Notes: generated by a model from the sequence alone, not told the origin. DNA of 64,000 bases from Leucoraja ocellata (GCA_036785375.1 JAWMAR010000506.1:248001-312000), one strand, 5' to 3'. Positions 1,042 to 62,580 are shown, counted from the stretch's first letter. Program-made: numbers and translations.

Positions 1042-1932
1042 CTAGAATTGGCAATAAAACAAAAATGGACACAAACTTATTGCAACATTGCAAATCTCTT
1101 GCAGTTTCCCATGAAAATAATAAATAAAATAATTCGATATTACAAATAACCATTTTGAAAGAGAAAAAAATGTTTCTAATAGATAATTTTCTTTTGAAAA
1201 TTGTAAATATGGAGAAAAGCAACATTAGTGGTGTTAAAATAAATATAAATCTTAATCCTGAATCTTGAAGGGCCAATTAGATTATTTTCCTACATTGGTA
1301 TACATTACATTTCAAAACCAAATGCTGATGCATTTGGTGTTTCAACTATTCCCATCTGTTGAAATGATTAATGCTGGGGTATATAATTACTTTGAGAAAT
1401 AAGGAAATGTAGATACTGGTTTACAAAAAAAGACAAAGTGCTGGAGTGGCATCTCTGGAGAACTTGGATAGGTGCCGTTTTGGGCTGGGACCCTTCTGAC
1501 CTTTTTTATAATTCCATTTGGACAATTCTGATTAGCCAGAAACCTGCCTGGATTCCTTCTCTGTGCCATTGAAGGTATTTAACTTTCTTGACTCTACCTG
1601 TGACTTTCTTTTGAGTAAATATTCACATTTCATTAAAACATTTGTAGCTAGATTTGAATTTTAGATTGCACTTCGTAAGTTGTTCAATAAATTTCACTTT
1701 ATTCCCAAGAGTGCACATCACCGCATTCAACATTATGGGGTTCAATCCCATAAGCAGATTTGCTATTTTCTAACATGTAAAAAAAGTGGTGCAATTTCCT
1801 CAAACAAACCTACTCATTCTTGACTTTTTCCACAGCTCCCCATGCAATATGTTTATTTTAAAAGCAACAATCTGTATTTGATGTATTCCACATGTTTGGT
1901 CTGCATAAATGTGCTGGATTTATTTCACTTAC

Positions 1933-2072
1933 TTGTCCATTTCTGCTTGTCTTTCTTTCCTAAGCTTTATCATTTTTTGTTTTGCTAATACGTACAATCT
2001 GATATCTTCATCTTGGAATTCCTGTTTTTGCTTTTCTAGCGCTTTAATAATATTATTGTTCTCAACATGTGC
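1933..2072 (-). CDS. CFAP210: CFAP210 coding exon 7
   Basis: attttcag| acceptor and AA|gtaagt donor. Encodes AHVENNNIIKALEKQKQEFQDEDIRLYVLAKQKMIKLRKERQAEMD. Not in the ORF track. Confidence 0.88.
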
Positions 2073-2657
2073 CTGAAAATTAAATAAAATATGAAAATGC
2101 GTTTATGTGATGCTTTTAACACAGTGAAACATCCCAAGCTGCTTCCCAGAAGCATTGTCATATGAAAATCTGATAATTAACTACGTGAGAAGACATTAGG
2201 GCAAATGACTAAAACTAGATGTCTAAAAGAGGTGAGTTTTAACCAATGCCTTGAGAAAGGAGATAGAGAACAAAGAGGTCTAGAAAGGGAGAGAGTTGAC
2301 ACCTTGGCAATGAAAGGCAATGGTCTCTAATGTTAGTGCACAAATTCAAGAATGTTTTGACTGTTTTACAAACCATGTTCTCGGGGTATCTAAATCTAAA
2401 TTTTATTAGTTGTTTAAGTTATGATATCGGATGGAAGCTGCATATCAAATCTCGTTGCACATATGTGCAATGACAATAAAATATATTATTATTATTATTA
2501 TGAATAAAAGGCCAGAAATCTGGTAGTGCAGAGGTCTTGGAGGGTTGTTAGGAGTGTGCAGATCATGAAATTAGGAAGAGAAGGATAATTTTTAAATTGA
2601 GAGGTTGCTTAACCAGTATTGTTGTAAAACAGTGAGATCTTGGGGTACAGCTACATA

Positions 2658-4020
2658 CAGTGCCCTCCATAATGTTTGGGACAAAGACCCATCATTTATT
2701 TATTTGAAGGTAGACAAAAGTGCTGGTGAAACTCAGCGGGTGCGGCAGCATCTATGTGGTTAAAGTGCACATTATCACATTTTAATAAAGGCCATTTTTA
2801 TACAATGCAATGTCATGTAAATGAAAGTAGTCATGTTTAGTATTTTGTTGCATATCCTTTGCATACAATGGCTGCTTGAAGTCTGCAATTCATGGACATC
2901 ACCAGTTGCTGGGTGTCTTCTCTGATGATGCTCTGCCAGGCCTGTATTGCAGCCATCTTTAGCTTTTGGGGGCTAGTCCCCTTCAGTTTTCTCTTCAGCA
3001 TATAAAAGGCATGCTGAATTGGGTTCATATCGGGTGATTGACGGCCACTCAAGAATTGACCATTTTTTAGCCTTGAAAAACTCCTTTGTTGCTTTAGCAG
3101 TATGTTTGGGATCATTGTCTTGCTGTAGAATGAACCGCCAGCCAGAGTTTTGATATATTTGTTTGAACTTGAGCAGATAGAATGTGTCTATACACTTCAG
3201 AATTCATTATGCTACTACCATCAGCAGTTGTATCATCAATGCAGATAAGCGAGCCAGTACCTTAAGCAGCCACACATGCCCAGGCCGTAACACCCCCACC
3301 ACCGTGTTTCACAGATGAGATGGTATGAATTGGATCTTGGGCAGTTCCTTCTCTTCTCCATACTTTGATCTTGCCATCACCCTGATGTAAGTTAATCTTC
3401 GTCTTATCTGACCACAAGACCTTTTTCCAGAAATGTGGATGCTCTTTTAAATATTCTTGGCAAACTGTAACCTGGCCATCCTATTTTTGAAGCTAACCGG
3501 TGGTTTGCATCTTGCGGTGTAACCTCTGTATTTCTGTTCATGAGGTCTTCTGCGGACAGCAGTCATTGACAAATCCACACCCGACACCTGAAGAGTGTTT
3601 CTGATCTGTCGGACAGGTGTTTGGGGATTTTTCTTTACTATAGAGAGAATTCTTCTGTCATCAGCTGTGGAGGTCTTCCTTGGCCTGCCAGTCCCTTTGC
3701 GATTAGTAAGCTCACCAGTGCTTTCTTTCTTCTTAATGTTGTTCCAAACAATTGATTTAGGCAAGCCTAATGTTTGGCTGATGACTCTAACAGTTTTATT
3801 CTTGTTTCTCAGTCTCACAATGGCTTCCTTGACTTTTATTGGCACAACTTTGGTCCTCATGTTGATAAACATCAATAAACATTTCCAAAGGTGATGGAAA
3901 GACTGGAGGAAAGACTAAGGGCTGAGAGCTCTCTTCTCCCTGCATTAAGGAGGCAATTAAACACACCTGAGCAATTACAAACACCTGTGAAGCCATGTAT
4001 CCCTAACATTATGGTGCCCT
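2658..4020 (-). mobile_element. Decayed Tc1-family DNA transposon (frameshifted transposase)
   Basis: TA|CAGTG terminus at 2656-2662. HTH ORF 3447-3875 (GRPRKTS). DDE-domain remnants [15 protein letters not shown] and SPDMNPIQH. Inverted copy of ccataatgtttgggaca at ~3995-4013; other end truncated. Confidence 0.92.
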
Positions 4021-4054
4021 GAAATGGGGGGGGGGGGGGGGGCGCTATGTATTA

Positions 4055-5030
4055 GAATGGCTTTTGACAAGGAACTGCATGGTAGGCTGATCTGGAAGTT
4101 GAGATCACATATGATCCAGAGTGAGCAACACTATTTGATACAAAGTTGGCTTAAAGGAGGAAAGAGAGGTGATATTAGTGGGTTGGACTGGAGGCCTGTA
4201 GAAAATGGTGCTACCACGGGGATAGGTGCAGGGTCCACTGTTATTCATTATATTAACAATGTAAATGTAAGTATAAGTGGCATGGTTAGCAAGTATATAT
4301 GGTGACCTATGAAAAAGGTTAACTATGATTACAATGGTATCTTGATGAACTGGGCCATTGGACATAAGGATGGCAGATGGAGTTTAATTCAGACAAATGA
4401 AAGGTGTTGCATATTGATAGGATGCACCAGGGTGACATGCATTAAATGGTACAGCCATGGGAATTGTTGCGGACCAGAGAGACCCAGGGATGCAATGTAC
4501 ATATTTCCATGAAGGTAGTTATTTCGATAGTGAGGGTGCTGAAGAAGGCATTTGACACTTTTATCTTCATTGGTGAGCGTATTGAGCACAACAGGAATTG
4601 GAAGTCATGTCACAGCTGTACAATATGTCGGTAAGGCCAAATTTGGAGTGCGGATAAGAGTCTGGTTTCCCTGCTGTGGGGACATTGACATTAAACTGCA
4701 AATGGTGCAAAAAATATTTATTGCACCATTAAATGTTCAATTATTGCATTATGTGTCTGGTAATAGGTTACCAGGTCTGGGTTACCATTGGCTGGGTTGT
4801 TTGTCCTACCAAAATGCAACACTTTACATTTATCTGATTTGAACTCCATCTGCCATTGCTATGTTCATTGGCGTAGTTGATCAAGATCCTATAAGATCTT
4901 TAAGGTGAGAGGGGAAATAATTTAAAAAGGCCTGGGGAGCAACATTTTCACACAGAGGGTGATGCGAATATGGAACGGGCTGCCAGAAGATGTAGAGGCA
5001 GGTACGATTAAACATTAAAAATATACTTTA
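4055..5030 (+). mobile_element. Old CR1 LINE fragments
   Basis: AFDKELHGRLIWKL, WQMEFN-like and other CR1 RT remnants, heavily degenerate. Confidence 0.7.
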
Positions 5031-5067
5031 AAAGATACAATTAGGATCTAAAATCAACCAAGAACTG

Positions 5068-5340: not shown

Positions 5341-6350
5341 GGACAGGTACATGGATAGGAAACTAATTTCTACTCATTAACTTACTCGGTTAAGCAACTT
5401 GGTCAACATGGGCAATTTGGACCATAGGACTTGTTCCTGCGTTGAATAGCTCTGTGACTAATTTGCTTGGTTCACAATGACTGCATCATAGCTTTATGTG
5501 CTGCAAATCTTCTTTAATCTTTATCCTCTGTTCCTCAGAATGCCACATTTTTTGCCTGGACAGTAAATTCCCCTTCCCACTTTTCTGACACTACTTGGTC
5601 ATGCTGCATTGCCCAAGTCCCCAAGGTTGTATTTGTGACTTAAGTTACTGCACTTTTTTCATGTATTGTTTCTTCAAAAGGTTTCTTGGCGACCTTCCTC
5701 CTCATAAAGGTTTAATAGGTTCCTGTGAACACTTTTCCCTTTCGTCTTCTCATGCAACCAATGTCCATAAATTGAAAAGTTTATGCCGAACCTGACATGC
5801 TTTTGTAACTGTTTGGTTATGTGCATATACCAGGCAACCACATTAGAATCTAGGAATTATCTAAAATGAGTGCATTCAAATGTTTCCAGTTGGTGGGATG
5901 GTGATTCACAATACTGCTTAATTTAAAAAAATCTCCTTTCTTAGTTTGCATGCAGTCAGAGTGATGAGGGAAGGGAAATATTATTAATACCATTTAACAG
6001 ATAGTCACTCCTATCCATTCTATCAGGCCGTATTTCCTTGGGGGTTTTGCTACCGGGAGGCCCCACACATTTTATTACTCATCCTCTAAATTTGTAAGGC
6101 ACCATCACAGAAACAAAGAATCCAGTGTATTCCTTCAAAACATAAAATGTAATCTCTTCCAATATTAGCAAATAGAATGTGGTCTTCTTTTAGCTGCTAT
6201 AGGTGATTAGGCTCAGCATACAGACATATCACAAACCTGCTGCTCACTTCTTTGGCAATGAAACTCACTCTGGTAAGACGCGATTGGAGCAATACAGTTT
6301 TTCCACAGCTTCATTTTCATTTGGATGTGGTAAGAAACCCTTTTATTTGA

Positions 6351-6443
6351 AGGTACACAAAAAAGCTTGAGAAACTCAGCGGGTGCAGCAGCATCTATGG
6401 AGCGAAAGACAAAGGCAACGTTTCGGGCCGAAACCCTTCTTCG
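6351..6443 (-). mobile_element. Short PLE-derived element with hammerhead-like core, 15-bp TSD
   Basis: TSD aacccttttatttga at 6336-6350 and 6444-6458. Reverse complement reads gaagaagggtttcggcccgaaacgttg. Confidence 0.8.
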
Positions 6444-6706
6444 AACCCTTTTATTTGACTTTGTGTACTAAAGTTGGACTATGAATTTCAAGCAAATTTA
6501 AAAAAAAAAAACATGATAACAGCTGTTTGCATTGTTAATCCATAAATGAATCAATTTTCCCCAAATAAACCTTTGGGGATTACACAAGAAAGCAGAAAAT
6601 ATCCTAAATTAATATAATGTCTACTATGATAATAAGTCTTCCAAAGTTCTGGAACCGTATGTAATTGAACTCCTAGGGATAAAAAAAAAAAGTAATTCAA
6701 GCTTAC

Positions 6707-14103: not shown

Positions 14104-15608
14104 CTAAAATGTCCAAATCATGAAATTTCAAAAAGAGTCAATATTTACCACATTTACCAAAGGTACTTTTTCTAATATGACTCATCTGGTATAATTGGTA
14201 GGTGGTAAACCAATCACCAATTCATTATTAGAGAATTAATTACAGTCTTAGGTGTATTGCTTAAAGCAAATTACAAACTGTTTTAACCAAATAAATTTAG
14301 AATACCATTGCTTATTCATTCACCTTCATTGTGGCCAATTCCTGAAACTTCAGGATATTCACTCCCCTCCATAAGTACAGCTTTGTGACACATGAGCTGC
14401 AGTTGAATCTTTAATATTGTGTAATCTCCAATCTCACTTTTTATGACAGCAGATCTTCAACTCGCAAAAGTTTACCAAGGAAATCCTCAAAAAACATGAA
14501 AAATGAACTGTACAGATACGTGCTTTGTGAATCAGCGTTTAAATTGGTTTGTGCAATGGATTAGAAGAATATTAAATTTCCTTAAACAGCTGGCATATTA
14601 AGCCAAGCATTTCAACTAATTCCAACTAATATATATTCCTGGCCAATATTTGTTTCTCGGTAACTGTAATCATAAAGTGTGGTCATTTATCGAGAAATCT
14701 TGCTGTGACTAAATTGGCAGTTGGACTTTCAACATAATAGCAATGAGTACCTTTCAATAAGTTCTTCATTATCTGTAAAAAATACTTTAAATCATGTTAA
14801 CCTTACAAAACATGTTACATAAACACGTCAATTAAAATAAAAATAACTGTAGATGCTGGAAAACTGAAATAACAGCAGAAAATGCTAGAAACATTCAGCA
14901 GATCAAACCGCATCTGTGGAAAGGGAAAGAGAGTTAACGATTTTGACCCTGAAGGGTCTTTATCTTGAAAACTTAACATTTCAATTTCCACTGAGTATTT
15001 TCTGGATTTATTTCAATATTAGCACCTAAGTGTAATAAGTGTGAACTGAGATCAATGGTGGATACTGTACTTCCAACTCATCCCATCTGTTGTGCAGGAA
15101 AGACCTGCAGATGCTGGTTTAAACTGAAGGTAACTCTCAGACACCTCCTCCTACTTATCCTTGGACCATGATCCCACAGACAAGCACCAGGCCTTAATAT
15201 CACACACCATTTCTGATTTCATTACTTCCGGCTCTCTGCCCTCCAAAGCCACCAACCTTATCATTCCCCAATTTTATCGTCTCCCCAAAATCCACGAACA
15301 AAACTGCCCTGGCAGACCCATTGTTTCTGCTTGTTCATATCCCACTGAATTAATTTCCACATACCTCGACTACATCCTATCCCTCCCTACCTATGTCCAA
15401 GACACCTCACACGCTCTTCGTTTCTTCAATGACTTCTGTTTTCCAGGCCCCCACTATCTCATCCTTACTATAGATGTCCAGTCACTCTACACCTTCATCC
15501 CCCACCAGGAAGGTCTTAAAGCCCTCTGTTTCTTTCCCAACCGCAGAACCAGCCAATTTCCATCTACTAACACTCTCCTCCGCCTAGCAGACCTGGTCCT
15601 TACCCTTA

Positions 15609-15841: not shown

Positions 15842-17017
15842 CAGGGCTGCCAACTCTCACGCATTGAGCGTGAGACTCACGGATTTCACAAAATTCTCAC
15901 GCTCTCACGCTGATCACAAATTTCCCATGCTCAATTTTTTTTTAAATGAAGTCATGAACAATTCAATTTGCCCAAGGTTTCCAGATCTCCTCCACACTCA
16001 CCAATGAGAATAGTTTTCTGTCGGTGGGTTTCCTGTAAAGAACTAATTGTCTTAGAATCTTAAGCACACTATTTAAAATGGCAAACTGCAGTACATTTGA
16101 CATTCATGGAATCAAAATCTGCAGGTGCTGGAAATTCAAAACAAAGGAGAGAGAAACGCTCCCTGGGCATCGCCAAGTCTCTGCTCACTCCGGATGTTGT
16201 CGTCGCTTCACTGACACGCATTCTCACACACACACTGGCACACGCAAGGTTTAAAGAGATATGTGCCAAATGGGGCATCTTGATCTGCATGAACAAGTTG
16301 GGATGAAGGGCCTGCTTCCAGGCTGTAAGACTTTGACACATTGTAGAAAGGGTGCAATTGCTCTGGAGAGGATCCAGGGGCGATTTATGAAGATGTTGGA
16401 AGGGCTGGAATTTTTTTTTCACTGAAGAAAGATTTGATAACTGGGATTGTATTCTCTGCAGCAACGGAGGTGAAGAAAAGACTTAGTTGAGATGAATAAT
16501 ATGAGAATAGGACCTGTTTCGCTTAACAAAGAGTGTAGGAAAGAACTGCAGATGCTGGTTTAAACTGAAGATAGATACTAAAAACTGGATTAACTCAGCA
16601 GGACAGGCAGCATCTCTAGAGAGAAAGAATGGGTGATGTTTCGGGTCGAGACCTTCAGACTGAAGAGGTTGAAAACCAGCCATAATACACAATGACTGGA
16701 GATGTGTGTTATCCAACTAAGGGCGGAAATCAGAATCATGTGTTCATCTTTATTGACGTGATATCATAATAAATATATTACAGGGTAAAAAAAATAATGG
16801 GGTGGCATGTTGGCGCAGCGGTAGAGTTGCTGCCTTGCACCACCACAGACCCAGATTTGACCCTGACTACGGGTGCTGTCTGTACAGAATTTGTACATTC
16901 TCCCTTTGACCACATGGTTTTCTCTGGATAGTCCGGTTTCTCCCCCCCTCCCCACCCAGTCGTTACGCTCCCTCGCAATTTCTCACTCTCAACTCTCACC
17001 CAATGTTGACAGCCCTG
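15842..17017. mobile_element. hAT-like non-autonomous DNA transposon with a 6-bp TSD
   Basis: TIRs cagggctgccaac and gttgacagccctg; TSD gggcac at 15836-15841 and 17018-17023. Subterminal ctctcac repeats at both ends. Confidence 0.8.
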
Positions 17018-18467
17018 GGGCACTCACATGGGCCCCAGCTATGCCTGCCTCTTTGTAGGATACCTCAAACAATCTCTGTTCCAGGTGTACACTGGCCCTA
17101 TCCCCGAACTCTATGCAGAACTCACAGACTTCATCAACTTCATCTACTAATTTACATCCTGCCCTCAAAATTCACTTGGACCATCTCCGGCATCTCTCGA
17201 TCATTTCTAGATCTCACCGTCTCCATCACAGGAGACAGACTATTGACCAACATCTATTACAAACCCACTGACTCCCATAGCTATCTAGACTACACTTCTT
17301 CCCACCCTGCTTCCTGCAATCCCCTACTCCCAATTCCTCCATTACACCGTGTTTGCGCACAGGATTAGGTTTTCCATGCCAGGTCATCGGAGATGTCCTC
17401 ATTCTTTAGGGAATGGGGGTTGCCCTCTTTCATTATAGATGAGGCTTTCACTAGGGTCTCCTCAATATCCCGCAGCTCTGCTCTTGCTCCCCCTCATCCC
17501 ATTTGTAACAAGGACAGAGTACCCCTTGTCCTCACCTTCCACCCCGTCGCACACAGCACATAATCCTCCGACATTTTCGCTACCTCCAACGGGATCCCAC
17601 TACGAGCCACATCTTCCCATCTCCACGCCTTTCCACAGAGACCATTCCCTCCGCAACTCCCTGGTCAACTCGTCCCTTCCCACCCAATCCATCCCCTCCC
17701 CAGATATTTTCCCCTGCAACTGCAGGAGATGCAACACCGGTCCCTTTACCTCCCCCCACAACTCCGTTCAAGGATCCTGACAGTCTTTTTAGGTGAGGCA
17801 GAGGTTCACGCACCTCCTCCACCTCATTTACTGTATCCACTGTTCCAGGTGTCGATCATTTCGCTGAATACCTCCGCTCAGTTCGCCTAAACCTACCTGA
17901 TTTCCCGGTTGCTCATCAATTTAACTCCCCCTCCCATTCCCAATCTGACCTTTCTGGCCTGGGCCTCCTCCATTGTCAGAGTGAGGCCCAGCGCAAATTG
18001 GAGGAGCAGCACCTTGTATTTCACTTGGGTAGCTTACATCCCAGCGATATGTACATTGATTTCTCTAACTTCAAGTAGCCCTTGCTTTCCCCCTCTCTCC
18101 ATCCCCTCCCCTTTCTAGTTCTCCTATCAGTCTTATCTCTGTACAGCCCACTCCCCTGACATCAGTCTGGAGAAGGGTCTCGACCCGAAACATCACTCAT
18201 TCCTTCTCTCCAGAGAATGCTGCCTGTCCCGGTGAGTTACTCCATCATTTTGTGTCATCCCAGATATTTACATTTACAAACAATGAGGATACATTAGCAT
18301 CCATTAACAATTCTGTATTATTCAGGTACAATTTAAGTATTATTTTTCTAATATTACTCAAAAATAATTTCAATGCTATGACTATTAAACAATTTACAAT
18401 TTAATTCTGTAGTTATAATTTAACACTCCATGCATGGCTACATTTTTCAACATTAAAAACAACTTAC

Positions 18468-21210: not shown

Positions 21211-21519
21211 TTATACATTAAGAAACAATGTGGGCTTGTAATACAGTTACAAGTTTTAATCTTCATATGGACTGAGCAAATTATCTTGACAATGGCAGCC
21301 TTCAGGTTGAGTTCATATAGTGTATTAGGGACAGATACGTGAATAATACATTGTGGAACCTACCAGGGAAATGGCTATTTTAAAACTGATCATATGTAAA
21401 GGGTCATTCTTATTTTCATATTCAATTTGAACTAAAACCTGTATTTTAAAGTTAACTAGAAGCAGGCAGAGTTGACTAAAATGAACTGGGACAATTATGA
21501 AAAGGTATATATAAATAAT

Positions 21520-21883
21520 GAAGGTAGATAAAAATGCTGGAGAAATTCAGCGGCTGAGGCAACATCTATGGAGCGAAGGAATAGGTGGCGTTTCGGGTCG
21601 AGACCCTTCTTCAGACTGATGTGGGGGTGGTGCGGTGCGAAGAAGAAAGGAAGAAGCGGAGACAGTGGGCTGTGGGAGAGCTGTAAATGGGAGGGGAAAG
21701 AGGGAAAAAAGCAAGTACTACCTGAAATTGGAGAAGTCAATGTTCATACTGCTGGGGTGTAAACTACCCAAGCGAAATATGAGGTGCTGCTCTTCCAATT
21801 TGCGGTGGGACTCACTCTGGCCATGGACGAGGCCCAGGCCAGAAAGGTCGGATACAGAATGGGAGGGGGAGTTGAATTGCTGA
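21520..21883 (-). mobile_element. Penelope-like 3' end with hammerhead-bearing terminal repeat
   Basis: Reverse complement matches 17920-18256. Confidence 0.8.
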
Positions 21884-29945: not shown

Positions 29946-29946
29946 A

Positions 29947-39355: not shown

Positions 39356-40351
39356 TTGTAATTACCGATTGATGTTAAAGGTGTACGTTGTTTTTTTTCC
39401 CTGTTGACTCCTTTACCTTCCCACTCTTCCATTCTCATTTCATCGTCACCTGTGCTGTTCCTCGGTGGGGGGGGGGGGGGGGGGGGTAATAGGAATGTTC
39501 GGTATTCCGACTGCGCATGCCCAGGTCATAGGTCACTGGAGATAAACATGCTCGGCAGCTGTGCTGCTGCGTGTATGCAGACCTGTGATTCATCCGTAGT
39601 CAGGTTCGAACCGGGTCTCCGGCGCTGCAAGTGCTGTTGAATTGCAACTGGAGTTAGCGACACTAGTTCTCCCTTCTCCACTGGTCCATGCAAAAATCTC
39701 AGCAGTGACAATCTAATGAATCATTTTCTCCCCCTCAGCCTGGGAGTATGGGTTCCACTCTCACTCGGGCTGCCCTCCCGGGTTATACAGGGTTATTATA
39801 CAGGGGCGAACCACGCACCCCTCTTCTGCATAACACCAGGAGGCAGATTTGTGAGTAGAGTCTCACTACCGTCCCCTCCCGTGTGTCCCATCCCTGTCCA
39901 GGGGCGGCCAGAGATGTCCGGGGTGACCCTGGTCTGACGGGACAGAGGCCCGGAGCAGTGGAGCCCCAGGCTAGCGCGGTGAAGAAGCGTTAACTCCAGA
40001 TCAACTCTGCTCCAACTCCCGAGGAACCCGTTCCCCGACGGGCCGGGGACCGTCAGCTGCACCTCTCGCCTTATCCAGTGGCTATCGGTTAACCCCCTCT
40101 GTGCCGGCGAAAGCCGAGCACCAGTCATCAACGGGGATACACACAAAATGCTGCATTAACTCAGCGGGTCAGGCAACATTTCTGGAGAAGGGTCTCGACC
40201 CGAAACGTCACCTATTCTTTTTCTCCAAAGATGCTGCCTGTCTCACAGAGTTACTCCAGCACATTGTGTCTACCTTCGGTGTAAGCCAGCATCTGCAGTT
40301 CCTTCCTACAGAGCTACGTCTGGTAAAGGCGAGGTGGCGGGGACAGAGCTG

Positions 40352-44199: not shown

Positions 44200-45269
44200 C
44201 AAAGATCTTAGAGTGGAGCAAGATGGTTCATTCCGCGAAAAAGCCGTAGTAGGTGTTGGGTAATCTTCAGCGCCATTTCCGTAACCGGCTTCCGTCATGG
44301 CGTCAAACTAATTCAGGGAGATTCTGCTATATCAGGCTGAGAGATTAAAGGATAGACACAAAATGCAGTGGGTCAGGCGGCATTTCTGGACAAACGGAAT
44401 AGGTGACATTTCGGGTCAAGACCCGTCTTCAGACTGAGAGGGGAAAGAGGAACTCAAACCATCCTCCCCACCCCCCCCTCCCCCTTCCCTCCGACACGGA
44501 CACGGAGCGATCACCGGCCCCCCTTTTTTTTGTTAAACATCTATTTCTTTTGGGTGCTTTTTTTTTAAATTACCATTTCCATACTTTTTTGATAGCTGCC
44601 ATGACCTGTTTGATGTCATCCTTCGCCCTGCTCCTGGTCTCGGCCTGCACCGATCTGCCGGACATGCTGTGTGTGTGTGTGTGCGTGTGTTTGTTTGTTT
44701 GGCGGAGTCTGAGGGGAGAAGCGCCGGCACCAAGAGCGAGCGAACGCGCGGACAGACGGACGAAAACAAACGGGTCATGGCAGCTATCGAAAAAGTCGAC
44801 CCGAAATATCACCTAGTCCTTTTCTCCAGAGATGCTACCTGATCCGCTGATTTACTCCAGCCTTTTATGTCTGGATTCGGTTTAAACCAGCATCTGCAGT
44901 TTCTCCCTGTACAAGGTATGTGCCGTTTTCGTGTGTAGTATCGTGTGTCCAGTCAGATTTGGCTTCCAGTCAGATTAACAATCACGCAAGTTTCCACACA
45001 CACACTTACTTCAACAAATAGCGACCAAGGCAGTGCTGACAGTGATGGGGGAAATTGATCAGGGTTTACTGCATTTAAAATTAAAAATTAAAAAAACATT
45101 TAAGACATTTAAAAACACACAAACTCTTCCCCCGCAACGCTCGTCATTACACCGCGAGAGGCATAACTGAAGTCGGGTTTACTGAAATGGCGGAAGTTAC
45201 TCTCCGGTTACACGTCAGTCCATTGGATTTTGCAGGAGTGGACCATCTTGCTCCGCTCTAAGATCTTTG
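44200..45269. mobile_element. hAT-type non-autonomous DNA transposon
   Basis: About 40-bp TIRs caaagatcttagagtggagcaagatggt and accatcttgctccgctctaagatctttg. 8-bp TSD cttgctac (44192-44199) and ctggctac (45270-45277). Confidence 0.85.
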
Positions 45270-46590
45270 CTGGCTACCAGTCTGAAGATGGGTCCGACTC
45301 AAAATTTTGTCTGTTCATTCCCTCAGCACATTCTTCTTGACCCTTCACCACCTTGAATTTTGCTCAAGGTTCCAGCATCTGCCGTTTCTTATGTCTCCCC
45401 CTTATAATAATCTTTTGACGTGCTACTGTGTGAAATAGTATTAGTAGCAAGGACAGAATTGAATGGAAAGTATTGCTCAATATGTGTATATATTCTAAAC
45501 ACAAAATCACACCTTTTAAAATTCTCATTGGTTGATTGAAATTTTATATTTATGAAATGTGTAAACTTGTTTGTTAATCTTGATATTCAGCTGTTTAGTG
45601 TGTTCCCTTCTGTAGTTCTGATAATATATTTCTCATATTTATTTACTGTTTGTTTCCTGCAGTCCCTTGCACCTTCACTGTCCTCTGCAATTTAGCTTTA
45701 TTTTTTTCCATTTGTTGGCATTCAGCTGTTGGCAAGCAGCCCTGTTTTATTTGGGGAAACTTTTTTTATTAAGATATCTGCAGTTTTACTTGATGATGCT
45801 TTTGATCTTTTTGCTGTCTATAGTCTCTGTCTTGTACTGGAAGGAACTGAAAAGAAGCATTTTGTATCTATTTTCAGTATAAACCAGCATCTGAAGGAAC
45901 TACAGATGCTGGTTTATACTGAAAATAGATACAAAATGTTGGAGTTACTCCACAGGTCGGGCAGCATCACTGGAGAAAAGGAGTAGGTGATGTTTCGGGT
46001 CGGAACCCTTCAGCTTTCAGCCTGAAGAAGGGTTCTGAGCCGAAACGTCACCAATTTCTTTTCCCCAGAGATGCTGCCTGACCTGCAGTTTCTATCTTGT
46101 ATCTGTTTCAGTGTGAAGAGCATAAGCTTAGAAGATAAGCTGATAATATCCTAAAAGCCAGTTTTGCGTTCATATTATTTTAAAGAATTTTTTCAAACAA
46201 CACAACTGCTTGCATCTTGATCCAAATCATTTGTCTTTTATTGAAAATCAAAAATCTGCAGATGCTGGGAATATCAAGTAAAACAGAAAATTATGGCCTG
46301 AAGAGTCCAACATGTTTCTCCTTCTACAGATGCTACCTAACCTGCTGAGTGTTTCTAGAAAATAAGACACAAAATGTTGAAGTAATCCAGTGGGTCAGGT
46401 ACCATCTCTGGAGGACATGGATTGGCAATGTCTCTGTTTGGAACCCTTCTTCAGTACTTTGTCTCCATTTCTATTGTCTTGTGCTCCTGTTTTGAACTGG
46501 ACAATTGTTTAACATTAGTGAATATTTACAGCTATTTTCTTTGCTTTTCATCTGTGATAAATTAAAATGAAAATTAATTTGCTATTGTAG

Positions 46591-47360: not shown

Positions 47361-48354
47361 GTAATGCCACTGTATGGTGGAACTTGGGAGTTCGGCTATT
47401 TAAAATAAATAAGGCAACCAGACTTGTTTTATCAGCACTTTATTACATTTCATTCTTAAATATTTCACAAAATAAATCTTTTTTTTCCCTTTAGAGATGA
47501 CATTGCAGAAAATGAATACAAAGTGAAATCTGTGTCCAAAGCCTGTAATGGTTGAATGGATAAATTGACCACTTGGAATGTGTGGGGTTAACAAGAAAGT
47601 TTATACCATACGGTTTCATAGATACAAAACATACACAATAAGTTTTGACAACATTTTGTGTTTATGTAGCATCAACAAAGAAATGCCTAAAGAGATTTCA
47701 AGTAAAGTGAAACCAAGGCCAAAAAGGATTAAGAGGCAGTTACCTAAACCAAATCAAACATAGAAACATAGAAATAGAAAATAGGTGCAGGAGTAGGCCA
47801 TTCGGCCCTTCGAGGGATCAAGGGATGGTCTTTGAGTTTAGTTGAGAAATTGAGAAAACCACCATGTAAACATGTCCTTTGCCCATCCAGTCCACAGCGA
47901 TCATCGGCTACCTGTTTACAATAGTTCTATGTTATCCCACTTTCCCACTCCTGACCCTCTGCAGATATTTTACAAAAGCCAATTAAGCTGCAAAATGGTC
48001 TTTTGAGGAATGTCGATTCAGGGAATGCTTAATATGTTGATTTTGCATGCCTCATTTACAGAAAATTAATGTCTTCTGTGTTTCTGTGTGAACAACTAAA
48101 CATTCATCTCTCTCCGCCGCCCCCTCCCCTTCATAACCTCGATTCATGTTAGTACATGGAGGAGGACATTCGCTTCAATGACAATTAATTTATTATTCTT
48201 TGCTGCATTCAAGGATAAAAATAGCACTGTAAAACTGTGAAATATCTTAAAATATCAGGATGGTGTATAATCTGTTTAAGAAGACTAAAGTATTCAAGCC
48301 AATTTTGCTCATCTTTCACGAAAAGTCGTTTTGATATCTACAACATAGATGTTT

Positions 48355-48487
48355 AAGAAATAACTGCAGATGCTGAAAAAATTGAAGGTAGACAAAAATG
48401 CTGGAGAAACTCAGCGGGTGAGACAACATCCATGGAGCGAATGAATAGGTGACGTTTCGGGTCGAGACCCTTCTTCAGATCCATCTC
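48355..48487 (-). mobile_element. Short PLE-derived hammerhead element with a 14-bp TSD
   Basis: TSD caacatagatgttt at 48341-48354 and 48488-48501. Intact core on the reverse complement: ctgaagaagggtctcgacccgaaacgtc. Confidence 0.85.
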
Positions 48488-50690: not shown

Positions 50691-52187
50691 ACCCCTACAC
50701 CACCACGGCCCCACAACCCAAAATGGCGCCTATCCATGTTCTCCAGAGATGCTGCGTTAGTCCAGCACTTTGGTTTTGTTGTAAACCACCGTCTGCAGCT
50801 CCTTATGCCTTGTATACAGTCCACCAGCATCTCACCATTCTTGTTGCTGTATTGTTCTCTGCTTGCTGAGTGAAAGTAAATGAGCCATGTGCCAAGCCAA
50901 CTAATCCTTTCCTATATATAGACACAAAAAACTCAGCGGGTCAGACAGCATCTCTAGAGAAAATGAAGTGACGTTTTGGGTCAAGACCCTTTTCCTATGT
51001 TTTAAATTTACTAAAGTTGTTCATGCTATATTTCTAACTGAATAGTATTAGGATTTTTACATATTTTGATTTACGTAAATAGAAATTTTAGAAGAATTAT
51101 TTGAAGGCTACATTTAAATCGCAGCTGGAAGGTTTGTACAGTTTGATTTATTAAATGGTTTTGTTACCCCATGAGATAGTAACTTGACTCTTAATGATAC
51201 CATTGACACATTGTTTTGCCTGGCAAATTGTGAACAATACAGCTATTGAAATCTGAAAACAAGTAGACCAAATTTTTATATTTGTTAGCGCGATTAAAAT
51301 GTTGGACCCGAGATATAAAACAAATACTCTCAAGTAGTTGATTATTGTTAAAGTTTTCCAAAGCACTAATACATAGTTTGGTAAGTTTTGTCTGCCGTCT
51401 GTATCTTTAATGTATTCAGTCATTAAAATAGAAACCAAAACTGATGTTCGGGTTGTAGCACAAAATTGCACTGAAGATTTACTATTCTCGCTTTAGTAAA
51501 TTTTGGCAGAGTTGGTGATCGAAGTACATAAAATGATAGGGAAGAGAGCTACATCTAGTTTTATATGTTGATCTAGCCAAATCTCATTTGGTACTATTTT
51601 GGATGAAATTGTGTGCGGGAGGGTATTTATTGACCATGGTCATATTGCTGCTGTTGGGAGACTGTTGTGTCCAGAGCATGTTATGTTACAGCAGTGAATG
51701 CACATTAAAGATAGCTCAGTGGCTGTTAGACATTTTGATGTGTATTGGGATGATAAAAAACTTAAATGCAGCCTGTTTTTGCCTGTACTTTTTAAATGCT
51801 GGTTTATTGAGCAGTGCCAAGTTAATATCTGCACTTCTGTAATCCAGTGTGCTTGAATTCCTCTGTTGGTAGATTAGCAGGCTGTTGAAAACAGTGCTTT
51901 CTTTGTGCTTCTGTGAAGCAGAATTACTTCCATAGCTACTTGTTAATCATAGAGCATTGGTATTTGTTCACAGTTTGTTTCATGTTTAATTTATGGTGAG
52001 TTGTATTGGGAGTTTCACAAGAATACCAATTGGAGCAATTGGGAAGTTGATTCATGAATAAGTGACAACAAAAATGCATTTTTCCTGGTCTTAAAGTTTG
52101 AGACTGTCCAGTTATTTCCCTTGCCTCCGACCTGTCTTGTGCATTGTTTTACTTTAGTTAAGACCATAGTACTTTAGTAAGACCATA

Positions 52188-52880
52188 AAGCTCCTGTCCC
52201 ACTTAATTGCCCTTGGCACGCTAATTACTCGACCTCGTGGTCGCGTTGAGGCGCGACGGTCCCGCGAAGGTCGCACGTGACTTCATGCGTCCGCACAGCA
52301 GTCTGGAGCACTTGACGTCATTTGAAGATGGACACAAAATGCAGGAGTAACTCAGCAGGACTGGCAGCACCTCTGGAGAGAAGGAATGGATGATGTTTTG
52401 GTTCGAGACCCTTCTTCAATCTGAAAGAAGGGTCTTGATCCGAAACGTCACCCATTGCTTCTCTTCAGAGATGCTGTCGGTCCCGCTGAGTTACTCCAGC
52501 ATTTTGTGTCTATCTTCAATTTTTTTGGCCCCGCTCTGGGAGTAGATGTGGGGGCGGATCCGGACCGCAACGGCCGTGAGCCCCAGGCTGAGTTCGACGA
52601 TCGTTTGCCTGCTTCTGCTGCTGTTGGAGGTGAGACATTGCATCACGCCAGGGTCTTGGGCCTGTCCCACTTTGGCCGTCTGTTACGCGACAGGCCGGTG
52701 GCGCGCGAAGATTTAGTTTGCTACAAAATTTCCGTGCGCCGCGCGATATATCGCGCACAACTACATACCCCTCCGCGCTTCACAGTGGGACCGGCCCCGC
52801 ACGGCCACACAATGTCCGTGCGCTTCAACGCAACGGCGAGGTCACGTAATTTGCATGCCAAGGACACGTGAAGGGCCTTA
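52188..52880. mobile_element. Harbinger-like MITE with long imperfect TIRs, containing a palindromic PLE unit (52325-52516)
   Basis: ccttggcacgctaattactcgacctcg is inverted to cgaggtcacgtaatttgcatgccaagg. The ctgtcccact motif is shared with the 15609 MITE. Confidence 0.65.
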
Positions 52881-54755: not shown

Positions 54756-56810
54756 GTAAATATTGATGCCACCAACATTGCACGTTGCTCAGAAAGGGTC
54801 TTTTTGTGATACCTGAGGAACTACTTCCCTTAGTGGAAACTGAATACGTCAGTCACTCAGGTAGCACCAGTACACCTAGTGGATTCTAATATTAAGGACT
54901 CTGCTCGTATATATTCAAATCCTTCAAACAGTTTAAGTCTGAATGAAAGAGAAACATTGAAAAGCACTGGAAATTGTATACTGGAAGTGCACAATATGTT
55001 GGTCATCCATGCAAAGATGGAGGAGGATGGTTAGTGTTCTGGTCATGGTGCAGTTCCAAAGTGTTAACTTGTTGATTAGCAAGATTCCTACTATCAATAC
55101 TTATACCCAACTAGCTGCAAGTTGAGACAAATTTTGAGAAACTCAAGACTAAGAAGGTTATCTGATTGCACGAGAAATGAAGAGGAACAGAAAGCAGTAG
55201 CTATTTAGATAAGGGATTTTAGAAGTTTAATATTGGTAGGGAAAAAAAGGGGTTACTGAGATGCACAATTTTGAAAATGCGCGCAATTAGTGGATGTCGT
55301 GATAAATCTGGGGAATGGACTTTGAATAAACCCTGAAGATATAGACACAATTGTGCATGTGCAATTCAAAAAAATGAATTTGTGTTTAGGATCATCAACC
55401 ACATTAGCATCAGTAAATACCAGTGACAGAAAGGGAGCTTTCATTGAAACTGAAATAAGGAGGGAAACAAGAAATTGCAGTTTTCCGAAATCTGAAACAA
55501 CAGGAGATGTTGGAAATGTTTAGCAGCTCAGGCAGCGCCACTGGACAGAGAAACAGCTAATATTTTCACTCAATTAAATTTAATTACAATGGGAATTGCA
55601 TTGTTAACCAGAAGATTTTTCTTGCCTTGTTCACTGGTGTGTGCGAAGTGCAGGTGACATGGGGCAACATGAGGCATTGCCTTCACATCCATCCATTCTC
55701 AAATAACCATTATCAATGTTACGGGAAGGTGCATCCATGTGTGTATGTTTCGTATGTTCCTCTAGAAATTATCAAATTCTAATTTATTTGTGTCTCAGGA
55801 ACTAAAAGTTTTCATTGTCCATCAGTACATTATTGTTGAAATCCAAATGCACATTAGCTGCAATGCCACAGGAAGTTTGCAGGTAACTTGTAACAATGGA
55901 TACAATTCAAAGAAGTTGAAGAAAATGGAAAATAAAATTCCAGTGGTGGGCAGGACAAAGTTCTTCAGACTGATGTCAGAAGAGGGGGCGGGACAGAGTT
56001 CTTTGTCCCTCCCCCTCCCCGGAAATCAGCCTGAAGAAGGATCTCAACCCGAAACGTCACCCATTCCTTCTCTCCAGAGATGCTGCCTCACCGCTGAGTT
56101 ACTCCAGCATTTTGTGTTCCCAAATCATGCCGTGATGCATCCCGTTACGGGCAATATCAGTTCCATCACTTCAGGACCCGACATTCCCTCTCTCTCTATC
56201 CCTCCCCCACCCAAGTCACACTAGCTTCTCATTTTCACCCTTTAGCTTACAATGACCTGTTTCCTTTATCATCGTTACTTTTTTTGAATATCTTTCATTC
56301 ATTGTTCTTTATCTCTCCACATCACCGTCTATATCTCTCGTTTCCCTTATCCCTAAACAGTCTGAAGGAGGGTCTCTACCCAAAACATCAGCCATTCCTT
56401 TTCTCCAGAGATGCTGCCTGTCCCGCTGAGTTACTCCAACTTTTTGTGTTTATCTTTGGTTTAAACCAGCATCTGCAGTTCCTTCTTACACATCAGTTTA
56501 TTCACCTTCAATCTAGATTCATTTGTTGTGTTTGATCAAAGTTTTGGTAATCTACTCTTTTATCTCATGACAACCTTTATACTTTCATGAAAAACCTTGT
56601 GGTATGTAATGATAAACATTTTCCAATATATTCTGCTTTCTGTACGACTTTCAAAAGTCGTTATAATTACACTTAAACATGATGTGTTTTCGTGTTATAG
56701 GCTCTGTGTATATATATTTTAAATCCAAGTTGAGTATGGTGTATATTTTAGCTGTTTATCAAATCTTAACAAAATGACCTGCTGATTTTGTCTTGTATGT
56801 TTACATTTAG

Positions 56811-56959: not shown

Positions 56960-58808
56960 GTATACGCCAATTGTCTATCGCATTGTCTTCCATGATAACC
57001 TTGCGTAGGTGTAATGATAAAACATTTCTGATATACTCTGCATTCTGTAAGGAATTGGAAGAACAATTACTTTAATTGCACGTCTATAGTGACATATTAT
57101 AAAGAAGCATCTCAAGACTTCAGTGAATATCCTTGAGAGATACATAATATGGAGGTATATTTAACTTACTAGCAGCAGCAGGACGTACTTTGTATTTGGC
57201 CAAGAATCATAAGACCATTAGTCATAGGAGCAGAATTAGGTCATTCGGCTCATCAAGTCTACTCCACCATTCAATTATGGCCGATCTATATATTGCCTCA
57301 ACCTCTAACTTACATACTAATTGAGAGTATCAATTGAGAAATAAAGCTGTATTTTACAAACAAGTTATGCACAAATCGATTGAATTATCATATTGGTCAA
57401 AGTGCATTGGTTGAGATAATCTTGGATTAATTCCTAGAACAATGTCATAGACAGGGAAAAGATGACTTTAGATTTGGTCATTTACAGTCTGATTTTAGTT
57501 GGTCCACAAAGGGACACAGTGCTGGAGTAACTCAGCAGGTCAGGCAGCATCTCCGGAGAGATCCCTTAATGTCTAAAATTCTATTATTCCTCTTCTTGCA
57601 AATAGTCAAAGACTGAATCACTACAACCCTCTTATTGAGCATGCTGAAGATTTCCTGGGACAGCTCTGATTATTTCATGTACAGGTGCTCTGTGTTTTCA
57701 AGTGAGTTGTCCTGATATGCTTTGCCTTTCGTGGTTGTGGGAAACGGCATATATGTGCCTCCATACATTCAATATAAAAGGATTGCTTCTCCAATAGAAT
57801 TGGAATTATTTTCCTTGAAAAGAAAGTCACATAATTTACTGTGGTTTTAAACCAAGCCTTTCCATTGGTATGAACATTGAATTCTCCAATCAACCCCCCT
57901 TCATCAATCTATCTATCTACCCTTACAGCATAGAAACAGGCTAACAAGCCCAACTTTCATTTTTTAATATCACGTGTACCAAGGTACAATTAAAAGCTTT
58001 TTGTTGCATTCTATCCAGTCAAAGAAAAGACTATACATGATTCACAATGCACAGATCAAAGAGTGGAGCGATTGTAATGTATGATAGCAGATCCTCTTCT
58101 GGGACCAACACACAGAGAATCCACTGGCTTCGGTGCCATCTTGGCTTGACCCAACTTGCCCATGCTGACTAAAATGTCCCATTTGCCCACATATGGACCA
58201 TATCCCTCTAAACTGTCCAAATGTCTTTTACATGGTGTTTATTGTACAAGTCTCCACTATCTCTAATATATAGATATATATATATATTTCCTTCCCTCTA
58301 TTTTTCCTGTGCCTCATCTGGATGTGCACCCATTTCTCCCCTTCCCCTTGCACCCATATTCCTGCCTATGGCTTCACAATTTGCACCTCTTCTATCCCTA
58401 CCTCACTTTTTGTCTTTTTGTCTCTGGCGTTTGTCCAACCATTTGCCTACTACCCCTTCCCCTCCCACCTGTATCACTTGTCAGGCTTTGTCCTGCCCCT
58501 CCTCTCCTCCAGCCCCCCACCACCCCCCCCCCCTCCCTCCCGCCCACACCACAATCAGTCTGAGGAAAGGTCCCAACCTGAAACATCACCTATCCATGTT
58601 CTCCAGAGATGCTGCCTGACCTGTCAAATTACTCCAGCACTTTGTACCCTTTCCATTGTTATCCCAGTTTAAGTTTGTAAAGCTTTGAAGTTCTTTGTCA
58701 GCAGTTAATGCTAGAGTCTAGGCTGAAGCAATGTTCAATGTTCAAGCACAATTGAAAGGTCTTGAAGTACTGTTTTCCCAGTGTTTTCTATTTTTACATT
58801 GTTTTCAG

Positions 58809-58961: not shown

Positions 58962-60080
58962 GTATGTAATTCTGCCATTATTGCTTTTTGAAATTGATCA
59001 TTTAAAAAAAAAATGCTTACAAAAAGGCTAATATTAAACCAGAATATCACTAGATCAAAAGATAGACACCAAGTGCTTGAGTAACTCAGTGGGTTCGGCA
59101 GCTTCTCTGGAAAAAAGAAATAGGTGATGTTTTGGGTCGGAACCCTTCTTCAGACTGAAAGATAGAGAAGGCCAGAACAAAACATGGTCGGTAACAGATA
59201 ACCACAAGAAGGGTGGAGTCCATAATAGCCCATGGTTGGCTGGGGAAGATGTGCTAAAGACAGGGATACAAGGATGCGAACAGTGGAACAAGTAGGATGA
59301 CTAGGGTGGTGAAGAGAGGGGGGTGGGGGAAGACCATGTGAGTTTTCTCTGGGTTCCTCAGTTTCCTCCCATATTCCAAAGACATGCAGGTTTGCAGGTT
59401 AATTGGCATCTGTAAATTGCCCTTAGTGTATAGGCTGCAAAACTGAGATAACATGGAACTTGTGTACAGGTGATCATTGGTAGGACTGGTGTAGATGGAG
59501 CATCTTGGATGGCATGGGCAAGTTAGCCAGAAGGGCCTGTTTCCTTGCTTTATGACTTTATGACTGTGAGTCAACTTAGAAATTCTGAGTCTGATTTGGT
59601 TGTTGTGGACTTGGTGTTTCCACGCTGTAACTAAATTAAATGAAATTACAGTAATAGAAATAGCCAAATGAGGTTGAATTCAGAATAAGAGTATGTGGGA
59701 GCGACTCTGGGGAAAGGCTGTGAAGAAGTGATTGTTTCAGAGAAGGTAAACACAAAATGCTGGAGTACCTCAGCGGGGCCAGGCAGCAGCATCTCTGGAG
59801 AAAAGGAATGGGTGACATTTTGGGTCGAGACCCTTCTTCAGACTGAGGTTGTTTCAGGGGTCTGATTGCAAAATGAACTTGTGGTTTATTTAGAACAAAG
59901 GATACTATTCAATTGAAAAAATGCAGCAGAACTTAGCAAAAATGATTTGCTATGACATTGTGAACTTCTACAATTAGCCCTATATTCTGTAAGGGTGTGC
60001 ATCCTTTTGCATATCATGATTGCATTATACTTTCCCAAAGTTATTGGGTGGATGGCTGTCTGACATTTATCCTTGGTTAG

Positions 60081-60994: not shown

Positions 60995-61480
60995 GCTCAA
61001 GACAGCAAGAAATTGCAAAGAGCTATGGATGTAGTCCACTCCATCACACAAACCAGACTCCCCACCACCGACGTCATCTACATTTAACGATGCATCGGAA
61101 AGGCAGCCAATATAATCAAAGACCCATTCCTCCTCCTCCCTGCTCCTATCAGGCAATAGATACAGAAGCTTGAAATTGCGCACGTTAAGACTCAGGAAGA
61201 GCTTCTTCCCCTCTTTTATCAGTCATCTGAACAGTGTTACCATATGCTAGGGTACTGTCCCAGTTATCTCTACCCCATTGGAGACCTTGGACTTTTTATA
61301 TGGAACAGATGCACTAAAATGCTGAGAACTATATTCTGCACTCTGTATCTTCCCCTTTACTTTACCTATTGTACTTGAGTTTGAGTTGATTGTATTTATG
61401 TACAGTATTATCTGATTTGATTGAACCAAGCTTTTCACTCTGCCTCGGTATACATAACAATAATAAACCTAAACCTATAT
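60995..61480 (+). mobile_element. Rex1/Babar-type LINE 3' end
   Basis: LLLSGNRYRSLK...RLRKSFFP-like motif and a tttcactctgcctcggta...aataaacctaaacct tail. Confidence 0.7.
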
Positions 61481-61781
61481 ATGACCTATTGCTGTTTGAC
61501 TTCCAGTGTAGTTTATTTTAGTTTATTGTCACGTGTACCGTGGTATAGTGAAGATTTTTGTTGCATGCTATACAATCAGTGGAAAGACTATACATGATTA
61601 CAATGGAGATGTCCACTGTGTACAGATAAAGGATAAAAGCAATAACATAAAATGCAAATCTAAATGACACACGTTGCATTAATAAAATATTTGCTTCACG
61701 TGCAAAGCTGAAACTATGAGATCATAAAGAGTGAAAGTAATATGACATGTTCAAATATTACATTTCTATTTTATTTTTAAG

Positions 61782-61909
61782 GTTTGTCTCTGACAAATAC
61801 TGGGCATTGTATTGCCACAGCTGTGACCCTGGGGCTGCTTAAAGGAGATTCGGAAAACCATGTCAACCTTATCAATGCTTCCTTACTTGCAAAAGAAACA
61901 GGAGTGACT
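61782..61909 (+). CDS. PHGDH: PHGDH exon 10 (gene continues beyond window end)
   Basis: ttttaag| acceptor, (G)LSLTNTGHCIATAVTLGLLKGDSENHVNLINASLLAKETGVT, |gtgagt donor; 128 nt. Confidence 0.93.
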
Positions 61910-61984
61910 GTGAGTTGTCTTGGAATTTATTTTGTAAATATGTGACCATTGTTGTAATTAACTCATTTGAATTTGATTTGCCAA

Positions 61985-62580
61985 AAGTTCATAAATTATA
62001 GGAGCAGTGTCTGAAGGGTCTCGACCAGAAATGTCACCCATTCCTTCTCTCCAGAGATGCTTCCTGTCCCGCTAAGTTACTCCAGCTTTTTGTGTCTATT
62101 ATAGGAGCAGAATTAGGCCATTCAGCCCATCAAGTCTACTCTGCCATTCAATCCTGGCTGATCTATCATCCTTTCTCAACCCCATTCTCTTGCCTTTTCC
62201 CCATAACCCGAGACACCGGAACGAATCAAGAATCTGTCATTAAAAATATCCATTGACTTGGGGTCTACATCCTTCTGTGTCAATGAATTCCACAGATTCA
62301 TCACCCTCTGACAAAATAAATTCCTCCATCTCCTTTATGCCTTTTATTCGGAGGCTATGGGCTCTGGTTCTAGACTCTCCCACCAGTGGAAACATCCTCT
62401 CCACATCCACTCTATCCAGGCCTTTCACTATTCAGTAAGTTTTAATTAGGTCCCCTCTCATTCTTCTAAACGCCAGCGAGTATAGGCCCAGTGCCGTCAA
62501 ACGCTCATAAAATGTTAATCCAATCATTCCTGGGATCATTCTCGTAAACCTCTGGACCCACATCCTCCCTCAGGTATGGG
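61985..62580 (-). mobile_element. CR1 3' end with an inserted PLE repeat (62008-62097, 13-bp TSD attataggagcag)
   Basis: KGLDRVDVERMFPLVGESRTRAHSL; TSD at 61995-62007 and 62098-62110. Confidence 0.8.

Follow-up and report, generated by a model that had tools for sequence, protein, structure and literature searches.

What is the short repeat that recurs along a 64,000-nt stretch of the Leucoraja ocellata genome (JAWMAR010000506.1:248001-312000; the window, taken at its full length), and how were its many short copies made? Each copy is built on a minimal hammerhead-ribozyme core, and an initial annotation had proposed a non-autonomous family resembling retrozymes or short interspersed elements (SINEs). 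With some reservation, we favour an explanation in which the unit serves an autonomous Neptune-type Penelope-like element (PLE) as terminal repeat and 5' leader, most short copies probably being run-off complementary DNAs (cDNAs) from a reverse transcriptase (RT) start inside that leader. At stake are the way in which PLEs transpose and the role of their weak hammerheads. Unit positions are numbered from hammerhead residue C3.

Abundance and layout of the family

The window was searched with a profile built on 10 of its own copies, which gave 49 matches at E<=1 against none in the reversed window; a second profile (threshold of at least 15 bits) gave 42 and 0, respectively. All 17 coordinates named in the initial annotation overlap profile matches, and the core, CTGAAGA-A-GGGT(CTCG)ACCC-GAAA-CGTC, agrees with its description. 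The unit is not centred on this core as had been described: the core is its start, the remainder extending about 95-130 nt downstream. In a genome sample of 100 stretches of 10 kb, chosen blind at round coordinates on large contigs, the second profile found 475 copies amounting to 47,045 bases (4.7% of 1 Mb) and none in the reversed sample, so the very high abundance claimed for the family was borne out. Extrapolation to the 3.44-Gb assembly gives about 1.6 million copies (range 1.4-1.9 million), the haploid number being maybe lower because the assembly contains near-duplicate stretches. A strict descriptor (core plus a 4-bp stem II) matched 69 times in 1.06 Mb versus 0-2 times in five shuffles. 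Exact copies of the leader of one young subfamily exist in their thousands, and 1,434 short copies are identical to the young master over 94 nt.

The unit belongs to a Neptune-type PLE

Among 99 endonuclease ends, a set in which loci overlap and many were picked for long open reading frames (ORFs), 93 have the unit at most 400 nt downstream. In the window it terminates PLE remnants at 18140-18263 and 21513-21639, as the initial annotation had noticed. The young subfamily forms intact head-to-tail tandems with a period of 3,946 nt and open frames of 1,233 codons (1,221 aa from the ATG) encoding RT and a GIY-YIG endonuclease. Each tandem runs in the order ORF stop, pyrimidine tract of about 110 nt, TCAGT, hammerhead, about 95 nt, tail of about 35 nt, about 33 nt and ATG, the latter at +164 from C3. 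Because of this order, the unit can be recognized as a pseudo-long terminal repeat (pseudo-LTR), which is the genomic 3' end of one copy and the 5' leader of the next.

The single ORF with RT and C-terminal GIY-YIG, the partial tandems acting as pseudo-LTRs, the inverted copies, the optional 30-40-bp tail and the target duplications are those of an endonuclease-bearing PLE. In an older copy, Pfam detected RVT_1 (E 5e-6) and GIY-YIG (E 1e-3), both under the Pfam cut-offs. Translations show a CxxC linker, CNRKKCNTC, between RT and endonuclease; such a linker is given as a mark of Neptune and Nematis in the accessible part of PMC8557442, and as judged from this translated motif, common to both, the element is of Neptune type. 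A genome-wide search with its C-terminal protein gave 117,457 first-look candidates, and a protein search gave 1,489 relatives at E<=1e-30, the closest named ones being unannotated shark and cnidarian proteins (nearest, a shark protein with 69% identity, as suits an elasmobranch host); no solved structure was found for the PLE protein. The element is amplifying recently. One PLE copy (L053:3950-4520) contains an expanded 24-bp tandem repeat in its N-terminal coding region. Elsewhere, a 63-66-nt piece of the leader, starting near GAAAC and lacking most of the core, forms tandem arrays (L053:730-940, L053:8442-8733 and L113:8377-8606).

Short copies share a fixed 5' end

Counted genome-wide, exact matches to the young leader numbered 4,823 from +5, 4,441 from C3, 3,540 from -3 and 3,007 from -6, a loss of 5-7% per nt at the 5' site as compared with 1.6% per nt before it. 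Thus 32% of the 4,441 exact young copies end within six bases of C3, with an edge about 3 nt before the core. When 30 young loci were considered individually, 11 ended at 0 to -5 and none of the other 19 between -6 and -21. Clear target duplications of 9-15 bp flank 4 of these 11; those four short solos therefore arose by insertion, not by deletion. Older solos have the same edge, steepest between -3 and -4: over 94 solo copies, agreement with the element dropped from 60% at -3 to 32-34% at -4 and -5, the corresponding value in 61 copies attached to the upstream untranslated region (UTR) being 80-87%. None of the 28 copies holding the ORF start stops at this site (p 2e-5 against 32%; about 3e-4 with arrays counted once), which argues against a stall intrinsic to the sequence. 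The raw-read runs came from a related organism, and two contig runs are possibly RNA; in an RNA run of the related organism, the commonest left loose-end site was the A at -3 (851 reads). Solo copies showed no extra cap-derived G at -4 (G 20%).

The same A was highlighted by a comparison with the core-promoter consensus of PMC4581360 (Table 1), which is degenerate and mostly drawn from Drosophila and human. Of the 3,946 element positions it is the top combined site for initiator (Inr), motif ten element (MTE) and downstream promoter element (DPE), with 19 of 24 letters (Inr 6/6, MTE 8-9/12, DPE 4-5/6) at the required spacing; 15 of 298,890 background positions reach 19. The MTE and DPE letters coincide with stem II, GAAA and the cleavage triplet.

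Two 3' ends and asymmetric head-to-head pairs

In the young family the 3' ends fall into two fixed groups, tail-less at +93 to +95 and tailed at +128 to +130. Head-to-head pairs contain 175 of the 475 sampled copies. Among 94 such pairs, 70 could be classified and 52 of these join a tail-less to a tailed end where 35 are expected (p 2.5e-5), suggesting that both target strands were primed, one from each RT start site. Many junctions lie at the palindrome TCAG-T-CTGA. A one-sided tail has been described for PLEs (PMC8557442 and PMC3846280, as far as these could be consulted). The leader segment AGATGCTG (e.g. window 28399-28460) pairs with the tail segment CAGCATCT in a long predicted stem with an inner hairpin; both 3' ends flank the 3' arm of this stem, a candidate RT-binding structure.

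The hammerhead is selected in master elements and decays in copies

Column majorities of the copies comprise C3-A9, an extra A, a 4-bp stem II with tetraloop, GAAA, ACGU and C/U17. This corresponds to the core CUGANGA...GAAA...UH, in which G10.1-C11.1 closes stem II and A9 is followed by an extra base. The palindromic 15.2-16.2 (ACGU) replaces stem III, its majority CG being eroded by CpG decay. The proposal of a PLE-type minimal type-I hammerhead with an ACGT palindrome is thereby upheld, together with its warning: stem I is 2 bp long, the hammerhead fold is not the predicted minimum, and monomer activity is doubtful. The descriptor search reported above also detected the motif well beyond shuffles. 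In Rfam (4,227 families) no hammerhead family matched the window at E<=5, and the matches obtained were set aside as microRNA-like hairpins over inverted pairs.

Other expectations failed among the genomic copies. Stem II had been thought to vary while keeping its pairing; over about 255 copies, none of its four pairs covaried beyond shuffles (p 0.17-0.62), the differences consisting of CpG decay and one subfamily change from U-A to U-G. G2.2-C1.2 gave p 0.008 in one of seven covariation tests. The core (92.8%) is no more conserved than the downstream columns (92.3%), and only 4 of 27 core-spanning copies in the window retain core, stem II and palindromic CG together; the 1-Mb sample gave 37 of 239. 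The hammerheads of genomic copies decay neutrally and are mostly decayed cargo.

Covariation did appear across distant PLE families. In 27 metagenomic relatives with 33-56% protein identity and at least 150 nt available downstream, the motif follows the ORF on the sense strand in 12 and on the antisense strand in none; in the other 15 the strict motif was not found downstream, some being decayed and some sequences ending early. A set of 13 representatives was assembled from 11 relatives with CGT after GAAA and two subfamilies of the present element, six further motif matches being excluded. Their core is invariant, but they were selected for it, and stem II pairing also entered the selection; stem I pairing did not. 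Pairs I.1 (2.1-1.1), I.2 and II.3 (10.3-11.3) were held in 13/13, 12/13 and 13/13 representatives, respectively, for shuffle means of 5.8-6.3 (5.8 for pair 2.1-1.1); both stem I pairs occur as several pair types, five in the case of 2.1-1.1. This covariation and the sense-only motif therefore indicate that the hammerhead structure is selected in master elements, where, as modelled, it is probably weak and in need of a dimer or a protein. The anole PLE hammerhead is reported to cleave only with protein (PMC11167929).

The RNA reads showed no ends after GTC, which the initial annotation had suggested mapping. Among 517 copies, three 5' ends fall at +28, no excess over the mean of 3.7 per position between +10 and +50. 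No monomer-length back-joint stood out in four RNA runs, the poly(A) and single-cell libraries being ill suited to circular RNA. Hammerhead-like motifs lacking ACGU/UH, such as GAAACGGC and GAAACCAU, were seen in distant PLE relatives (L247:2131, L296:3152, L264:4791, L268:4109 and L276:3677).

Proposed origin of the short copies and competing explanations

In the mechanism that we propose, an internal Inr/MTE/DPE promoter would direct RNA polymerase II to initiate at the A of TCA(+1)GTC. RT would begin at either of two sites flanking the tail and copy to the RNA 5' end; two tail-flanking start sites have been reported in vitro for an anole PLE (PMC11167929, in part). The dimeric RT-endonuclease would often prime both nicked strands, one per site, and the joined cDNAs would give a head-to-head pair. 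Copies bearing the ORF or arranged in tandem would derive from another template without that 5' end, either a read-through multimer or a circle made by the hammerhead. In its fullest form, which we advance tentatively and with less confidence than the origin in the leader, the first 35 transcribed bases would be hammerhead and downstream core promoter (Inr, MTE, DPE) at once, and a strong-stop-like cDNA of the capped leader would have been inserted alone, in many cases twice at a site and on the order of a million times overall, the ORF tandems coming from another, possibly ribozyme-circularised template. Should transcription start at this 5' end, many PLE copies classed as "truncated" would form a distinct product class, and part of the conservation of the hammerhead sequence may be promoter constraint.

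Several observations weigh against this proposal. The 5' edge spreads over a few bases (-2 is the commonest end among the 30 young loci) and falls on the palindrome TCAG-T-CTGA as well as on a 3'-splice-site-like pyrimidine tract plus CAG. Distant relatives lack an Inr at this spacing. The RNA reads show no spot where many molecules start or stop, and 62-93% of them continue into unlike flanks. Early truncation is generally commoner near the RT start, and differences in processivity could explain part of the absence of ORF-bearing copies ending at the site. For the ribozyme, the hammerhead fold lies at -4.5 versus a minimum of -10.6 kcal/mol in the young monomer and at -7.1 versus -29.8 kcal/mol in the young-copy dimer; in the youngest family the cleavage site reads GUU. 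Finally, the model requires two RNA classes, both of them hypothetical.

The coincidence with the palindrome could also reflect an ordinary hotspot of 5' truncation, at which RT copying the same long RNA stalls, or microhomology joins the ends, at TCAG-T-CTGA before the pyrimidine tract. The numerous pair junctions at this palindrome agree with such an origin, as do 5' ends spread throughout +5 to +70 and the strong 5' truncation and frequent inversion of PLE insertions (accessible text of PMC8557442 and PMC3846280). We nevertheless regard it as unlikely, since none of the 28 ORF-bearing copies stops there, solos with target duplications and no inverted partner start there as well, and TCA at -5 to -3 is conserved at 80-87% across subfamilies with wholly different UTRs. 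The putative splice signals were followed separately. The CAG before the core as a used 3' splice site, and the cleavage site as a branch point for the AG before GATG, were both set aside: no GT-AG joint was present among the joints listed, and solos share no upstream exon. The tract itself is well seen in the 3'UTR at L100:6615-6730 and at window 18075-18166, where it ends in CAG just before the core. In several subfamilies CTGAC or CTGAT lies a few bases upstream, and the whole resembles a 3' splice site, as in D. virilis, no spliced read being seen. Over L100:6694-6855, reads of a single-cell run were about 4:1 in favour of the strand opposite to the hammerhead, which may reflect orientation selection in genes or oligo-dT priming at A-rich stretches.

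The view of the initial annotation, in which a self-propagating non-autonomous family with its own internal promoter and its own lineages is moved in trans by the PLE protein, appears less probable still. Its SINE-like part stood: the 5' end is defined, target duplications occur, 164 of 235 core-bearing copies lack the UTR, and a tailed copy reaching -5 has the complete predicted promoter and RT-start stem. The notion of a separate family did not stand in view of the endonuclease ends that carry the unit. Five rule-defined subfamilies among 200 copies each include endonuclease-attached and short copies, with no short-only subfamily, and the commonest diagnostic signature is common to attached (3) and solo (5) copies; such mixed subfamilies argue against a separate SINE lineage. 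Within the young subfamily, divergence is higher in short than in attached copies (0.060 vs 0.025), as independent propagation would have it, but in four of the five subfamilies the two classes diverge similarly, the 1,434 exact short copies match the young master, and copies starting at -3 are deprived of the two upstream Inr bases. No Rfam match to a head derived from tRNA, 5S or 7SL was found; short copies start 0-5 nt upstream of the core, and the flanks beyond that point are unrelated. Movement of short copies in trans from other copies is possible.

A retrozyme driven by the ribozyme, with RNAs cut after GUC/GUU and circularised as templates of the short copies, we consider very improbable. 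The core and stems do covary across distant PLEs, a circle model has been proposed for PLEs (PMC4209133, consulted in part), and the 63-66-nt arrays elsewhere in the genome start near GAAAC. Against this, 5' ends do not pile up at the cleavage site, short copies contain the entire core, and no read starts at the cleavage site. Neighbours among 215 matches were 38 head-to-head, 4 tail-to-tail and 10 same-strand, without any regular array, and the window does not contain the head-to-tail arrays with one hammerhead per monomer that characterize retrozymes.

Comparison with known elements

Earlier publications already describe minimal hammerheads at PLE ends as well as solo copies, inverted pairs and tails. 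The ribozyme itself is expected and known; what deserves testing is the fixed 5' end, the overlap with the predicted promoter and the asymmetry of the pairs. The genome contains a young family in which intact tandems are identical and exact short copies number in the thousands. The comparisons below rely on those parts of the cited works that were accessible. The minimal type-I hammerheads of PLE pseudo-LTRs (Cervera and de la Pena 2014, PMC4209133) are alike in core, extra base 9/10.1, G10.1-C11.1 and palindromic 15.2-16.2, and likewise occur mostly as single motifs tied to truncated PLEs, with nearby opposite-strand pairs. They differ in stem I, of 2 bp only here as in D. virilis. Up to about 9,000 motifs per genome were reported there, as compared with a density here of about 37 per Mb for intact motifs and 475 per Mb for copies. 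The term shark was absent from the two supplementary files of that paper that were searched.

The Poseidon element PAc of Anolis carolinensis (Frangieh et al. 2024, PMC11167929) also has its hammerhead at the pseudo-LTR-ORF junction, two internal RT starts bounding an optional tail, cutting and extension of both target strands, and RNA-seq reads without ends at the cleavage site. The present family, with its two 3' ends, single 5' end and asymmetric pairs, agrees with the in vitro mechanism reported for this one lizard element. The present element differs by its Neptune/Nematis CxxC linker, by an ATG 164 nt after C3 where that of PAc lies inside stem II, and by the fixed 5' end of its short genomic copies, for which no report on PAc was found. 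D. virilis Penelope (Schostak et al. 2008, PMC2377424) has partial tandems and a TATA-less internal Inr and DPE promoter in the pseudo-LTR; a 75-bp intron lies 46 bp downstream of the start, and its 3' end adjoins the hammerhead. In contrast, the start predicted here lies 3 nt before the core, the downstream motifs overlap the ribozyme, and no spliced joint was seen. Non-LTR retrozymes (PMC7229834; bioRxiv 10.64898/2026.07.22.740005) are similarly non-coding, with a type-I hammerhead, and derived from PLE pseudo-LTRs. Their monomers of 150-450 bp are arrayed head to tail and often have canonical active hammerheads and circular RNAs, whereas the copies described here are solo or head-to-head, 95-135 bp long and PLE ends. 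One chondrichthyan was surveyed in the bioRxiv work, whose supplements may list this family. No paper was found that treats the elasmobranch family, the sharp 5' end of short copies, a PLE product of strong-stop type or a hammerhead-overlapping promoter, in a search that left most subscription journals, Repbase and Dfam outside.

Copies in the window and their surroundings

The copies are listed in Table 1. The older related family represented at 26187-26281 has a longer stem II loop.

Table 1. PLE-derived copies in the window (positions from its first letter)
Position	Strand	Feature	Details
1395..1497	-	decayed short copy	CFAP210 intron
2696..2756	-	copy, core removed by deletion	98% matching contig C35 stretch keeps core
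6337..6450	-	young-subfamily short copy	GGGTTTCGGCCC
14842..14922	-	partial copy	old
15092..15500	+	PLE RT fragment	inverted tail fragment on 5' side (15092-15132, minus); right end approximate
16532..16667	-	tailed short copy	inverted relative to PLE body at 16990
16990..18263	+	decayed 5'-truncated PLE body (RT end, linker, GIY-YIG), pyrimidine-rich 3'UTR, unit	tail-less; TCAGT 18162-18166, C3 18167
21513..21883	-	PLE endonuclease remnant, 3'UTR, unit	C3 21614; GCC replaces GTC
24009..24115	+	decayed copy	old
24981..25153	both	two short copies, tail to tail	plus starts at C3, minus at about -3
26187..26411	+	older-family copy	CTGATGA core; core fragment 26385-26411
28246..28483	both	head-to-head pair	tail-less minus arm, tailed plus arm; plus arm with intact core, C3 28352, predicted cleavage after 28379
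29731..29947	both	head-to-head pair	junction at palindrome TTCAG-T-CTGAA
33761..33888	-	short copy	
34699..34765	+	partial copy	without core
35257..35382	both	head-to-head pair	junction inside stem II
37096..37229	+	copy with pyrimidine-rich UTR upstream	intact core (G-U in stem II)
37537..37726	both	tailed copy without core (+), core-only fragment (-)	
40127..40311	both	head-to-head pair	tail-less and tailed
44343..44916	both	short copy (-), tailed partial copy (+)	44343-44444; 44796-44916
45273..45325	+	core fragment	
45856..46122	both	head-to-head pair and tail fold-back	fold-back 45856-45940
46295..46455	both	two decayed copies, tail to tail	
48348..48482	-	solo short copy, tailed	start -1; intact core (C3 48478); target duplication of about 12-13 bp
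50714..50993	both	two partial copies	+ 50714-50805, - 50916-50993
52318..52524	both	head-to-head pair	two tail-less ends
56003..56117	+	tail-less short copy	
56344..56494	+	tailed copy	long upstream UTR, decayed core
57493..57561	-	partial copy	without core
58541..58696	+	copy and upstream UTR	
59040..59160	-	short copy	
59737..59851	-	short copy	start about -5
62009..62106	+	tail-less short copy	

The host genes assigned to the locus were recovered (CFAP210; a PHOSPHO2-type phosphatase, PF06888; PHGDH). The claim that the unit sits in them in both orientations held only before the PHOSPHO2 exon and inside PHGDH; in CFAP210, all three copies in the verified span (804-14137) are on the strand of the gene. 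The final PHGDH-like exon gave no PDB match, while a different PHGDH exon did match. As the unit makes up about 4.7% of the sampled DNA and is frequent in host transcripts, it brings potential promoters and cleavage motifs into many introns.

The window is 97-99% identical to a stretch of contig C35 (G000:C35:11.44-11.51 Mb), which is an allele or a recent duplicate, and about ten insertions differ in 64 kb. These include pieces of CR1-type and other long interspersed elements, a non-coding repeat rich in GC and, near window 37030, a young PLE (about 1 kb plus the unit, with a duplication of about 13 bp) that is present on C35 and absent from the window. Such differences reflect very active transposition; no short copy differed in presence or absence in this empty-site comparison. 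Repeats of about 0.9 kb that are rich in GC, apparently non-coding and terminated by (CAATA)n or T-rich sequence lie at 8776-9700, 18880-19690 and 19980-21200, and related copies are polymorphic with respect to C35. A decayed Tc1/mariner transposase (PF01498) occupies 2840-3914 on the minus strand, in a CFAP210 intron.

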